From a virus (lineage: Duplodnaviria; Heunggongvirae; Uroviricota; Caudoviricetes), in the IMG/VR virus record IMGVR_UViG_2529293142_000008: a stretch of 16,588 nt of DNA; one strand, 5' to 3'. Shown in pieces: positions 1,558 to 6,358 of this stretch. The translations under genes were made by a program, and so were the position numbers. Numbering within the stretch: position 1 is the stretch's first letter; the number at the start of each line of letters is the position of its first letter. A model generated the notes under the pieces. That model was not told the DNA's origin. It did no database searches and saw only the letters and a program-made list of their open reading frames with translations.

Positions 1558-1908
1558 ATGACGAGCAAAGAAACCTTTACCCATTACCAGCCGCTGGGCA
1601 ACAGTGACCCGGCTCATACCGCAACCGCGCCCGGCGGATTGAGTGCGAAAGCGCCTGCAATGACCCCGCTGATGCTGGACACCTCCACCCGTAAGCTGGT
1701 TGCGTGGGATGGCACCACCGACGGTGCTGCCGTTGGCATTCTTGCGGTTGCTGCTGACCAGACCAGCACCACGCTGACGTTCTACAAGTCCGGCACGTTC
1801 CGTTATGAGGATGTGCTCTGGCCGGAGGCTGCCAGCGATGAGACGAAAAACGGACCGCGTTTGCCGGAACGGCAATCAGCATCGTTTAACCTTACCCTTC
1901 ATCACTAA
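1558..1908 (+). CDS. D: head decoration protein D, C-terminus altered by an apparent 1-nt deletion in an A-run
   Basis: ATG 1558 ([12 protein letters not shown]...). After the A5 run at 1846-1850 the +1 frame encodes [13 protein letters not shown] then TAA at 1887-1889, which would give the canonical 110-aa gpD. The observed frame instead reads [19 protein letters not shown] and stops at 1906-1908. Confidence 0.8.
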
Positions 1909-1910
1909 AG

Positions 1911-1931
1911 GCCGCCTGTGCGGCTTTTTTT
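1911..1931 (+). terminator. hairpin GCCGC-CTGT-GCGGC followed by T7, between D and E
   Basis: Read directly from the sequence. It lies inside the operon, so it is more likely an attenuator or mRNA-stability element than a full terminator. Confidence 0.4.
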
Positions 1932-1944
1932 ACGGGATTTTTTT

Positions 1945-2969
1945 ATGTCGATGTACACAACCGCCCAGCTGCTGGCGGCAAATGAGCAGAAATTTAAGTT
2001 TGATCCGCTGTTTCTGCGTCTCTTTTTCCGTGAGAGCTATCCCTTCACTACGGAGAAAGTCTATCTCTCACAAATTCCGGGACTGGTAAACATGGCGCTG
2101 TACGTTTCGCCGATTGTTTCCGGTGAGGTTATCCGCTCCCGTGGCGGCTCCACCTCTGAATTTACGCCGGGATATGTCAAACCCAAGCATGAAGTGAATC
2201 CGCAGATGACCCTGCGTCGCCTGCCGGATGAAGATCCACAGAATCTGGCGGACCCGGCTTACCGCCGCCGTCGCATCATCCTGCAGAACATGCGAGACGA
2301 AGAGCTGGCCATTGCTCAGGTCGAAGAGATGCAGGCCGTTTCTGCCGTGCTTAAGGGCAAATATACCATGACCGGTGAAGCCTTCGATCCGGTTGAAGTG
2401 GATATGGGCCGCAGTGCGGCGAATAACATCACGCAGTCCGGCGGCACGCAGTGGAGCCAGCGTGACAAGTCCACGTATGACCCGACCGACGATATCGAAG
2501 CCTACGCGCTGAACGCCAGCGGTGTGGTGAATATCATCGTGTTTGATCCGAAAGGCTGGGCGCTGTTCCGTTCCTTCAAAGCCGTCAGGGATAAGCTGGA
2601 TACCCGTCGCGGCTCTCATTCCGAGCTGGAGACAGCGGTAAAAGCCTGGGCAAAGCGGTGTCCTATAAGGGAATGTATGGCGATGTGGCCATCGTCGTGT
2701 ATTCCGGACAGTACGTGGAAAACGACGTCAAAAAGAACTTCCTTCCGGACAACACGATGGTGCTGGGGAACACTCAGGCACGCGGTCTGCGCACCTATGG
2801 CTGCATTCAGGATGCGGACGCACAGCGCGAAGGTATTAACGCCTCTGCCCGCTACCCGAAAAACTGGGTGACCACCGGCGATCCGGCGCGTGAGTTCACC
2901 ATGATTCAGTCAGCACCGCTGATGCTGCTGGCTGACCCTGATGCATTCGTGTCTGTACAACTGGCGTAA
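1945..2969 (+). pseudogene. E: major capsid protein E, frame interrupted by a 1-nt deletion near 2644-2645
   Basis: ATG 1945 (MSMYTTAQLLAANEQKFKFDPLF...). The N-terminal ORF runs to 2871 with an aberrant tail. The E C-terminus (SYKGMYGDVAIVVYSGQYVEN...FVSVQLA) is in the +1 frame as ORF 2658..2969. The span is 1025 nt against 1026 nt for 341 aa plus stop. Confidence 0.85.
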
Positions 2970-2971
2970 TC

Positions 2972-2998
2972 ATGGCCCTTCGGGGCCATTTTCTCTCT
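2972..2998 (+). terminator. hairpin ATGGCCC-TTCG-GGGCCAT (UUCG tetraloop) followed by TTTCTCTCT, just after the E stop
   Basis: Read directly. 7-bp GC-rich stem with a partial U-tract; candidate attenuator between E and FI. Confidence 0.35.
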
Positions 2999-3010
2999 GT
3001 GGAGGAGTCC

Positions 3011-3409
3011 ATGACGAAAGATGAACTGATTGCCCGTCTTCAGGTGCTGGGTGAGCAACTGAACCGTGATGTCAGCCTGACGGGGACGAAAGAAGAACTG
3101 GCACTCCGTGTGGCAGAGCTGGAAGAGGAGCTTGATGACACGGATGACGCTGCCGGTCAGGACACATCTCTCAGCCCGGAAAATGTGCTGACCGGGCATG
3201 AAAATGAGGTGGTATCAGCGCAGCCGGATACCGTGATTCATGATACGGCTGAACTGGTCACGGTAGTGGCACTGGTGACGCTGCATACCGATGCACTTCA
3301 CGCCACGCGGGATGAACCTGTGGCATTTGTGCTGCCGGGAACGGCGTTCCGTGTCTCTGCCGGTGTGGCAGCCGAAATGACAGAGCGTGGCCTGGCCAGA
3401 ATGCAATAA
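3011..3409 (+). CDS. FI: DNA packaging / head assembly protein FI
   Basis: ATG 3011 preceded by GGAGGAG. Gives 132 aa (MTKDELIARLQVLGEQLNRDVSLTGTKEELALRVAEL...). Acidic N-terminal half and position match lambda FI. Confidence 0.9.
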   Translation: MTKDELIARLQVLGEQLNRDVSLTGTKEELALRVAELEEELDDTDDAAGQDTSLSPENVLTGHENEVVSAQPDTVIHDTAELVTVVALVTLHTDALHATRDEPVAFVLPGTAFRVSAGVAAEMTERGLARMQ

Positions 3410-3420
3410 CGGGAGGCGCT

Positions 3421-3795
3421 GTGGCTGATTTCGATAACCTGTTCGATGCTGCCATTGCCTGCGCCGATGAAACGATACGCGGGTACATGGGAACGTCAGC
3501 CACCATGACATCCGGTGAGCAGTCCGGTGCGGTGATACGTGGTGTTTTTGATGACCCTGAGAATATCAGCTATGCCGGACAGGGCGTGCGCGTTGAAGGC
3601 TCCAGCCCGTCCCTGTTTGTCCGGACTGATGATGTGCGGCAGCTGCGGCGCGGCGACACGCTGACCATCGGTGAGGAAAACTTCTGGATAGACCGGATTT
3701 CGCCGGATGATGGCGGAAGTTGTCATCTCTGGCTTGGCGGGGGGGGACCGCCTGCCGTTAACCGTCGTCGCTTGAAAGGGGGGGTATGGCCATAA
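3421..3795 (+). CDS. FII: head-tail connector protein FII, apparent stop-codon loss extending it 7 codons into Z
   Basis: GTG 3421 preceded by GGGAGG (3411-3416). The first 117 codons end in ...PPAVNRRR at 3771, the canonical gpFII length. Codon 118 is TTG (3772-3774) where a stop is expected, and the ORF reads LKGGVWP to TAA at 3793-3795. Confidence 0.8.
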   Translation: MADFDNLFDAAIACADETIRGYMGTSATMTSGEQSGAVIRGVFDDPENISYAGQGVRVEGSSPSLFVRTDDVRQLRRGDTLTIGEENFWIDRISPDDGGSCHLWLGGGGPPAVNRRRLKGGVWP

Positions 3796-4364
3796 AAGGT
3801 CTTGAGCAGGCCGTTGAAAACCTCAGCCGTATCAGCAAAACGGCGGTGCCCGGTGCCGCCGCAATGGCCATTAACCGCGTTGCTTCATCCGCGATATCGC
3901 AGTCGGCGTCACAGGTTGCCCGTGAGACAAAGGTACGCCGGAAACTGGTAAAGGAAAGGGCCAGGCTGAAAAGGGCCACGGTCAAAAATCCGCAGGCCAG
4001 AATCAAGGTTAACCGGGGGGATTTGCCCGTAATCAAGCTGGGGAATGCGCGGGTTGTCCTGTCCCGACGCAGGCGTCGTAACAAGGGGCAGCGTTCATCC
4101 CTGAAAGGTGGCGGCAGCGTGCTTGTGGTGGGAAACCGTCGTATTCCCGGCGCGTTTATTCAGCAACTGAAAAATGGCCGGTGGCATGTCATGCAGCGTG
4201 TGGCCGGGAAAAACCGTTACCCCATTGATGTGGTGAAAATCCCGATGGCGGTGCCGCTGACCACGGCGTTTAAACAGAATATTGAACGGATACGGCGTGA
4301 ACGTTTGCCGAAAGAGCTGGGCTATGCGCTGCAGCATCAACTGAGAATGGTAATAAAGCGATGA
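3786..4364 (+). CDS. Z: tail assembly / tail completion protein Z
   Basis: ATG 3786 after a G-rich Shine-Dalgarno. Gives 192 aa, the lambda gpZ length, in the expected position. Confidence 0.9.
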   Translation: MAIKGLEQAVENLSRISKTAVPGAAAMAINRVASSAISQSASQVARETKVRRKLVKERARLKRATVKNPQARIKVNRGDLPVIKLGNARVVLSRRRRRNKGQRSSLKGGGSVLVVGNRRIPGAFIQQLKNGRWHVMQRVAGKNRYPIDVVKIPMAVPLTTAFKQNIERIRRERLPKELGYALQHQLRMVIKR

Positions 4365-4757
4365 AACATACTGAACTCCGTAGCAGCCGTACTGGATGCA
4401 CTGGAGAAGCATGACACCGGGGCGACGCTTTTTGATGGTCGCCCCGCTGTTTTTGATGAGGAAGATTTTCCGGCAGTTGCCGTTTATCTCACCGGCGCTG
4501 AATACACGGGCGAAGAGCTGGACAGCGATACCTGGCAGGCGGAGCTGCATATCGAAGTTTTCCTGCCTGCTCAGGTGCCGGATTCAGAGCTGGATGCGTG
4601 GATGGAGTCCCGGATTTATCCGGTGATGAGCGATATCCCGGCACTGTCAGAGTTGATCACCAGTATGGTGGCCAGTGGCTATGACTACCGACGCGACGAT
4701 GATGCGGGCCTGTGGAGTTCAGCCGATCTGACTTATGTCATTACCTATGAAATGTGA
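4361..4757 (+). pseudogene. U: tail terminator protein U, frame interrupted by a 1-nt insertion near 4382
   Basis: ATG 4361 (MKHTELR) runs into TGA at 4412-4414 after 17 codons. The rest of U (...[59 protein letters not shown]) is in the next frame and ends at 4757. The span is 397 nt against 396 nt for 131 aa plus stop. Confidence 0.85.
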
Positions 4758-4764
4758 GGACGCT

Positions 4765-5505
4765 ATGCCTGTACCAAATCCTGTAATGCCGGTGAAAGGT
4801 GCCGGGACCACCCTGTGGGTTTATAAGGGGAGCGGTGACCCTTATGCGAACCCGCTTTCAGACGTTGACTGGTCGCGTCTGGCAAAAGTTAAAGATCTGA
4901 CGCCCGGCGAACTGACCGCAGAGTCCTATGACGACAGCTATCTCGATGATGAAGATGCGGACTGGACTGCGACCGGGCAGGGGCAGAAATCAGCCGGAGA
5001 TACCAGCTTCACGCTGGCGTGGATGCCCGGAGAGCAGGGGCAGCAGGCGCTGCTGGCGTGGTTTAATGAAGGTGATACCCGTGCCTATAAAATCCGCTTC
5101 CCGAACGGCACGGTCGATGTGTTCCGTGGCTGGGTCAGCAGTATCGGTAAAGCGGTGACGGCGAAGGAAGTGATCACCCGCACGGTGAAGGTCACCAATG
5201 TGGGACGCCCGTCGATGGCAGAAGATCGCAGCACGGTCACAGCGGCAACCGGCATGACCGTGACGCCTGCCAGCACCTCGGTGGTGAAAGGGCAGAGCAC
5301 CACGCTGACCGTGGCATTCCAGCCGGAAGGCGCAACCGACAAGAGCTTCCGTGCGGTGTCTGCGGATAAAACAAAAGCCACCGTGTCGGTCAGTGGTATG
5401 ACCATCACCGTGAAAGGTGTTGCTGCAGGCAAGGTCAACATTCCGGTCGTATCCGGTAATGGTGAACTTGCTGCGGTTGCAGAAATCACTGTCACCGACA
5501 GTTAA
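4765..5505 (+). CDS. V: major tail tube protein V with C-terminal Ig-like domain
   Basis: ATG 4765 preceded by GTGAGGA. Gives 246 aa ([22 protein letters not shown]...), intact. The C-terminal Thr/Val-rich beta-rich segment fits the known Ig-like domain of gpV. Confidence 0.92.
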
Positions 5506-5520
5506 TCCGGAGAGTCAGCG

Positions 5521-5943
5521 ATGTTCCTGAAAACCGAATCATTTGAACATAACGGCGTGACCGTCACGCTTTCTGAACTTTCAGCCCTGCAGCGTATTGA
5601 GCATCTCGCCCTGATGAAACGGCAGGCAGAACAGGCGGAGTCAGACAGCAACCGGAAGTTTACAGTGGAAGACGCCATCAGAACCGGTGCTTTTGTGGTG
5701 GCGATGTCCCTGTGGCATAACCATCCGCAGAAGACAAAGCAGCCTTCCATGAATGAAGCCGTTAAACAGATTGAGCAGGAAGTGCTTACCACCTGGCCCA
5801 CAGAGGCAATTTCTCATGCTGAAAACGTGGTGTACCGGCTGTCCGGTATGTATGAGTTTGTGGTGAATGATGCCCCTGAACAGGCAGAGGACGCCGGGCC
5901 TGCAGAGCCTGTTTCTGCGGGAAAGTGTTCGACGGTGAGCTGA
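5521..5943 (+). CDS. G: tail assembly chaperone G
   Basis: ATG 5521, 140 aa, ends in ...SAGKCSTVS. The slippery heptamer lies 6 codons before its stop. Confidence 0.9.
   Translation: MFLKTESFEHNGVTVTLSELSALQRIEHLALMKRQAEQAESDSNRKFTVEDAIRTGAFVVAMSLWHNHPQKTKQPSMNEAVKQIEQEVLTTWPTEAISHAENVVYRLSGMYEFVVNDAPEQAEDAGPAEPVSAGKCSTVS
5919..5925 (+). other. programmed -1 ribosomal frameshift slippery heptamer GGGAAAG (G to G-T)
   Basis: Heptamer G GGA AAG read directly in the G frame near the 3' end of G. It is the known lambda G-T slip site. Confidence 0.8.
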
Positions 5944-6358
5944 GTTTTGCCCTGAAACTGGCGCGCGAGATGGGGCGACCCGACTGGCGCGCCATGCTTG
6001 CCGGGATGTCATCCACGGAGTATGCCGACTGGCACCGCTTTTACAGTACCCATTATTTCATGATGTTCTGCTGGATATGCACTTTTCCGGGCTGACGTAC
6101 ACCGTGCTCAGCCTGTTTTTCAGCGATCCGGATATACATCCGCTGGATTTCAGTCTGCTGAACCGGCGTGAGGCTGACGAAGAGCCTGAAGATGATGTGC
6201 TGATGCAGAAAGCGGCAGGGCTTGCCGGAGGCGTCCGCTTTGGCCCGGACGGGAATGAAGTTATCCCCGCTTCCCCGGATGTGGCGGACATGACGGAGGA
6301 TGACGTAATGCTGATGACAGTATCAGAAGGGATCGCAGGAGGAGTCCGGTATGGCTGA
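5919..6358 (+). pseudogene. T: tail assembly chaperone T (G-T frameshift extension), interrupted by a 1-nt deletion in a T-run near 6056-6058
   Basis: The -1 frame from the slip site reads VFDGELSFALKLAREMGRPDWRAMLAGMSSTEYADWHRFYSTHY and then hits TGA at 6093-6095. The rest of T (HFSGLTYTVLSLFFSDPD...IAGGVRYG) is in another frame (ORF 6077..6358), overlapping the H start as expected. Confidence 0.75.

Follow-up and report, generated by a model that had tools for sequence, protein, structure and literature searches.

The closest described counterpart of the gene considered here is gene D of phage λ (J02459 D), whose 110-aa product, the head decoration protein gpD, forms trimers, binds expanded capsids and is represented by several solved structures (PDB 1C5E, 1VD0, 7VII). 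Each head contains about 405-420 copies of the protein, which has been called essential for morphogenesis and tolerates both N- and C-terminal fusions (PMC6260602). Frameshifted forms of D are also on record: RefSeq lists pseudogenes named 'head decoration protein, frameshifted' in E. coli (AVR72_RS06905 in SaT040 and P6O79_RS02105 in USVAST219). As to the effect of losing gpD, Sternberg and Weisberg reportedly found in 1977 that in D-defective (D amber) λ full-length genomes are not stably packaged and only shortened ones are tolerated.

The window, by which we mean the whole stretch of 16,588 nucleotides that was analysed (IMG/VR record IMGVR_UViG_2529293142_000008), is a head-tail morphogenesis module of the λ/434 type, as seen from its ORFs and from BLAST. 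The order of genes is the end of B, C/Nu3, D, E, FI, FII, Z, U, V, G-T, H, M, L, K, I, J, lom and the start of stf, an arrangement shared with phage 434, λ and many E. coli prophages, to which the window is ~96-97% identical. No match to the whole window above ~97% was found among complete RefSeq E. coli genomes or deposited phages; the best match to the 501 bp around D is 99.6%. D lies between C/Nu3 and E, as it does in λ, 434 and the E. coli A25 prophage, and has the same terminator downstream as λ D. Unlike in λ D, the A6 run near the end of the gene is one A short, and the 13-residue tail is swapped for 19 other residues. The features of the D region are as follows.

1558..1908, + strand: gene D, head decoration protein; 116 aa as read, the frame being shifted from codon 98 on, and HDPD at residues 3-97
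1846..1850, + strand: A5 run, where the 1-nt deletion lies; all intact relatives have A6
1848..1889, + strand: remnant of the canonical D C-terminus, out of frame; 13 residues and TAA
1911..1931, + strand: D-E intergenic hairpin and T7; rho-independent terminator according to the phage 434 annotation

The run reads AAAAA, with G (1845) on its 5' side and C (1851) on its 3' side, and a homopolymer scan finds no other run of five or more bases in D. Because the run is A5 instead of A6, the D frame reaches the TAA at 1906-1908. The normal stop is thereby bypassed and the conserved final 13 residues give way to 19 unrelated ones, the ORF being 116 aa long from 1558, or 118 aa if an upstream ATG is used (1552-1908). 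The canonical 13 codons remain at 1848-1886, followed by TAA at 1887-1889. An earlier note on this DNA, made from the letters alone, had proposed that a 1-nt deletion in the A run replaces the C-terminus, and that its reversal would restore a 110-aa gpD with the canonical C-terminus ending at that TAA. Both proposals are borne out: λ, 434 and the A25 prophage have A6, and putting one A back gives a 110-aa gpD that is 2 residues apart from λ gpD. The frame of the remnant, which the note called +1, is in fact -1 (equivalent to +2) relative to the upstream D frame. The TAA of the extended frame sits immediately 5' of the D-E hairpin and T7; a consensus terminator scan did not flag this hairpin (1911-1931).

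The Pfam profile HDPD (PF02924) matches D as read with 69.8 bits, the cut-off being 29.1. The match extends over residues 3-97 and ends at profile position 104 of 116; after restoration of the A it extends over residues 3-107 and ends at position 113. As read, D lacks the complete domain with its conserved C-terminal segment, profile positions 105-113 being lost. Solved gpD chains in the PDB match D at E = 9e-60, with the alignment stopping at residue 98, and residues 1-97 differ from λ gpD only by Q13L and S44T. Since other residues take the place of the conserved final 13, instead of being added to them, the product of the A5 allele is expected, on the basis of profile conservation, to have lost its function if the lesion is real. 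The loss of capsid stabilisation predicted in that case is the same as in λ D amber mutants, although here it would be masked by the lesions in E, U and T described below.

Counting the A residues in λ D and in prophage D genes, a comparison that the earlier note had proposed, gives A6 in λ and in nearly all of the prophage genes, and A5 here. All 12 intact loci of the panel used for comparison have A6. The segment occurs in 3,203 complete E. coli records, and 22 of them contain an exact match to the A5 47-mer, a query that excludes position 1839, where the window carries a rare T. Another 3,179 fall at 95-99% identity, and among the matches listed all span 48 bases, which corresponds to A6. 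The A6 form is present in ~99% of E. coli D genes, and in every phage genome record among those listed for the D region.

The deletion in D is the first of five isolated 1-nt indels located within 1846-6056, at D 1846, E 2644/2645, FII 3772-3773, U 4382 and T 6056-6058. The other four genes affected are the following.

1945..2969, + strand: gene E, major capsid protein; one A lost between 2644 and 2645, giving 308 aa instead of 341
3421..3795, + strand: gene FII; an extra T at 3772-3773 and loss of the stop, giving 124 aa instead of 117
4361..4757, + strand: gene U, tail terminator; an A inserted at 4382, the ORF ending after 17 aa
5925..6358 (start and end approximate), + strand: T-frame portion of the G-T tail chaperone; T4 shortened to T3 at 6056-6058

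Three of the five indels are outside base runs. In E, GAC has become GC, a change outside any run and absent from the panel loci aligned there. In FII, CGCTGA has become CGCTTGA, so that the stop in CGC TGA is read as CGC TTG A and the protein is 7 residues longer than in the closest haplotypes (L026/L029/L031). Near the end of FII there is also a private C to G change at 3739, which converts C plus G7 into G8 and Arg into Gly. The A inserted in U copies neither adjacent base, and the extra base is absent from all 23 panel loci aligned there. In G-T, the slippery site GGGAAAG (5919-5925) is intact. In all five genes, restoring one base per site yields the full-length canonical product with no further defect.

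The lesions in E, FII, U and T appear to be peculiar to this record. Lesion-centred 47-mers, which leave no 28-base megablast seed free of the lesion, gave zero matches for these four in 5,426 complete E. coli genomes, and lesion-spanning tags were not found in GTDB representatives, IMG/VR or JGI metagenomes. The truncated E product (E-308) and the orphan T fragment occur on no contig of the assembly gene index. A protein identical to J of the window is likewise not on record, and the contigs that encode its exact I, Z and 118-aa D proteins are all distinct from the source of the window. Other 308-aa E proteins were considered as possible carriers of the same E lesion and rejected, as their frames shift at different codons and merely run into the same out-of-frame stop.

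In the remainder of the module, full-length proteins are encoded by C, Nu3, FI, Z, V, G, H (853 aa), M, L, K, I, J (1137 aa) and lom. The region from H to lom (6351-15396) is undamaged, and H, J and C together account for 7.3 kb of untouched sequence. Further frameshifts, premature stops, large deletions and insertion elements were looked for in the genes compared over the 16.6 kb, and none was found. There are 25 substitutions that are absent from the 31-locus panel, 19 of them at codon position 3 and 15 synonymous. This distribution indicates a lineage under purifying selection with little neutral decay, and is that of ordinary phage polymorphism. The marks of relaxed selection, namely substitutions at random with respect to codon position, nonsense mutations and deletions, were not seen. 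FII, U and T have one private non-synonymous change each. None of the window's longest runs (G8, A7, G7 and two T7) is affected.

The A5 allele of D has been found in other genomes. At least 24 other contigs, from NCBI, ENA and Logan assemblies, code for an identical 116-aa protein, and other 116-aa variants exist on different D backgrounds. Over 1 kb around D, the A5 carriers form at least five haplotype groups. The nearest neighbour of the window over this distance is an intact A6 haplotype (L028) with 5 differences, the nearest A5 carrier having 14. According to the earlier note, homologues from related prophages with the same extended C-terminus would speak against a lesion. Such homologues were indeed encountered many times, but they are pseudogenes of defective prophages or come from assemblies rich in errors, and the shared tail is no evidence of a functional variant.

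The complete-genome carriers that were inspected, six of six, share a single remnant prophage adjoining sitD and iss. Four are from the USA (SaT040, USVAST219, KE21 and CU568-3, O25:H4) and AF4 is from the UK; SK1144 is presumably from Japan, the record itself naming no country. The proteins flanking D have identical accessions across the six, which come from different laboratories and countries. PGAP/RefSeq label D there as "frameshifted", and the two RefSeq pseudogenes mentioned at the outset have the identical A5 47-mer and the shifted tail. A5 in the O25:H4-type remnant is thus clearly a real, inherited allele. D is the only broken head-tail gene of the remnant (L014, L016, L032-L035) besides a truncated tail-fibre gene, whereas in the window four more genes are hit. 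Integrase, repressor and replication genes were absent from the examined stretch of the remnant, which carries iss. Since the remnant is only ~89-95% identical to the window, the A5 event of the window is independent of that of the remnant. In a second lineage (L004/L009/L036/L037), independent assemblies share both A5 and a split terminase gene A. Most A5 carriers have additional broken structural genes.

Some of the remaining carriers differ in being rich in errors. FELIX_MS516 (L015, NZ_CP163516.1), a RefSeq "complete genome", has A5, and nearly every one of its λ-prophage genes is flagged as frameshifted; it is evidently an indel-rich assembly, which calls for caution with allele counts in that collection. 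Both FELIX_MS516 (CP163516) and ENA ERZ1714329 contig_2073 resemble the window in having the same A5 and scattered 1-nt indels that also fall outside long runs. Their density is far higher, however: one such locus (L006) has 26 private indels in 6.7 kb and FELIX_MS516 has them in nearly every gene, as against 5 in 16.6 kb of the window. In E. coli DEC8D (EHW30160.1, P0014), the A5 tail is accompanied by residues 6-17 that resemble the outcome of paired compensating frameshifts, which suggests that this assembly may contain extra errors or lesions. The carriers thus span several haplotypes and include inherited alleles as well as error-rich assemblies, from which it follows that the change from A6 to A5 arose repeatedly, both as real mutation and as error.

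An unrelated feature was noticed in two of the loci. In L006 (~10593) and L022 (~8399), at points corresponding to 2154-2182 of the window, E is interrupted by a shared integrative element, 96.7% identical over 6.4 kb. Its genes are those for an integrase, AlpA, a D5_N primase, SSB, an E-like protein (346 aa), a D-like protein (113 aa), GmrSD and HEPN. The element looks like a capsid-encoding phage satellite with gene E as its putative attachment site.

The lesions of the window could be errors or real mutations, and on this point the earlier note, which left room for sequencing error as well as for a slippage mutation, was right to take no side. We are somewhat inclined to favour indel errors of sequencing or assembly in the source record over real recent decay, because there are five 1-nt indels in 4.2 kb, each repairable with one base, in a module that has kept its signature of purifying selection. 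The change from A6 to A5 in D would then belong to a group of closely spaced indel errors made in base calling or assembly, and would not be a biological property of the phage. An artefact of this kind should leave several isolated 1-nt indels, each reparable to a canonical ORF, and these are seen at five sites. It should also leave lesions that are reproduced nowhere else, which is true for four of the five; the D lesion recurs, but on other haplotypes. In the 31-locus panel, private indels number zero in intact phages and prophages, 0-2 in real decaying prophages (all in base runs, and beside 21-180 private substitutions) and dozens in error-rich assemblies. The window, with 4 private indels plus the A5 versus about 27 substitutions, falls between the decaying and the error-rich groups. 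The indels outside runs, and the insertion at 4382 that duplicates no neighbour, are atypical of replication slippage. All five indels are in 1846-6056 and none is in the other 10.5 kb, an arrangement whose chance under a uniform rate we estimate at ~0.01-0.02; their crowding into 4.2 kb would suit sequence of locally poor quality. However, a decaying prophage assembled by Logan (L010) has a similar ratio of indels to substitutions, and the untouched G8, A7, G7 and T7 runs do not fit the classic homopolymer errors of 454 or Ion Torrent. Nanopore error at Dcm motifs was also considered, given that the E deletion abuts CCTGG, and was rejected, since just one of the five sites fits and the record seems to be older than nanopore sequencing. 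Two neighbouring UniParc identifiers, of E-308 and Z, suggest that it was deposited around 2011. If instead the lesions are real, the window would represent a recent pseudogenisation, in which slippage took one A from D of a defective lambdoid prophage and four spontaneous 1-nt indels followed after selection for virions was lost, leaving a gpD without its conserved C-terminal segment and a module making neither capsids nor tails. This is a possibility to be taken seriously, even if we would not bet on it. A real mutation is entirely plausible here because A5 is real and inherited in other lineages, both in the O25:H4-type remnant (6/6 checked) and in L004/L009/L036/L037. The change is a recurrent real event, found in at least five haplotype groups; the nearest neighbour of the window has A6, and most A5 carriers have further broken structural genes. 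The intact long homopolymers are in keeping with real mutation as well, and the private non-synonymous changes in FII, U and T could reflect relaxed selection. What such decay does not readily explain is the composition of the lesions. In spontaneous mutation of E. coli, indels and substitutions stand at ~1:10. Five indels versus a handful of plausibly neutral substitutions are far from this spectrum, and far from what is seen in the real decaying prophages of the panel. Nor does decay account easily for the lack of premature stops, large deletions and insertion elements in the genes compared, for the 7.3 kb of H, J and C without a scratch, or for four lesions that turned up in this record only, whichever collection was searched.

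Two further readings would give the A5 allele a function. The 116-aa protein might itself work, or a -1 ribosomal slip on ACG AAA AAC might regenerate wild-type gpD, and we regard either as extremely improbable. In favor of a working allele are its recurrence in many genomes and the state of the O25:H4 remnant, where D stands broken among head and tail genes otherwise sound except for the tail fibre. Also, a -1 slip at the site would read T-K-K-R-T-A-F..., which by the sequence is exactly wild type. However, every phage record among those listed has the extra base of A6, the lost segment belongs to the conserved HDPD profile, and the A5 carriers are otherwise decaying or error-rich. The features of a programmed -1 frameshift of the dnaX or λ G-T type, that is, a heptamer, a downstream structure and a conserved split arrangement, were searched for and none was found. 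Read in the zero frame, G AAA AAC departs from the X XXY YYZ pattern of a slippery heptamer, since its first position does not re-pair; the RNA downstream is no more structured than shuffled sequences (-10.2 kcal/mol, z = -0.54); and the split arrangement of D is not conserved, ~99% of prophage copies having D in one frame with A6. A slip of low efficiency would also be unable to supply the ~405-420 copies of gpD needed per head (PMC6260602). A related and more speculative proposal, which we consider very unlikely, is that the A6 run is a recurrent and possibly selected, reversible slip-strand switch by which lysogens silence capsid stabilisation, or through which a -1 slip provides a low level of wild-type gpD. 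If this were true, shortened remnants such as the O25:H4 one would keep an otherwise intact head-tail module. In λ genetics, a genome below 82% of full length is packaged without gpD.

The consequences for the phage depend little on D itself. Were the lesions real, the limiting defect would lie elsewhere than in D because E, U and G-T are also broken, and the module would make neither heads nor tails whatever the state of D. The remark in the earlier note that a real lesion in D would matter is therefore moot here, with E, U, the G-T chaperone and the FII stop also hit within the next 4.2 kb. As it stands, the window codes for no viable head or tail, since FII has lost its stop and D, E, U and G-T are broken, and unless it is resequenced it should not be taken for an inducible phage or for a source of variant proteins. 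A homopolymer frameshift in a structural gene of a prophage is routine, and the A5 allele is already known as an annotated RefSeq pseudogene. The cluster of five indels points to sequence quality or to a dead prophage, both of which are ordinary, and the biological weight of the finding is small. The A6 run of D has been hit repeatedly, and its length can serve as a quick marker for defective λ-type prophages or poor assemblies.
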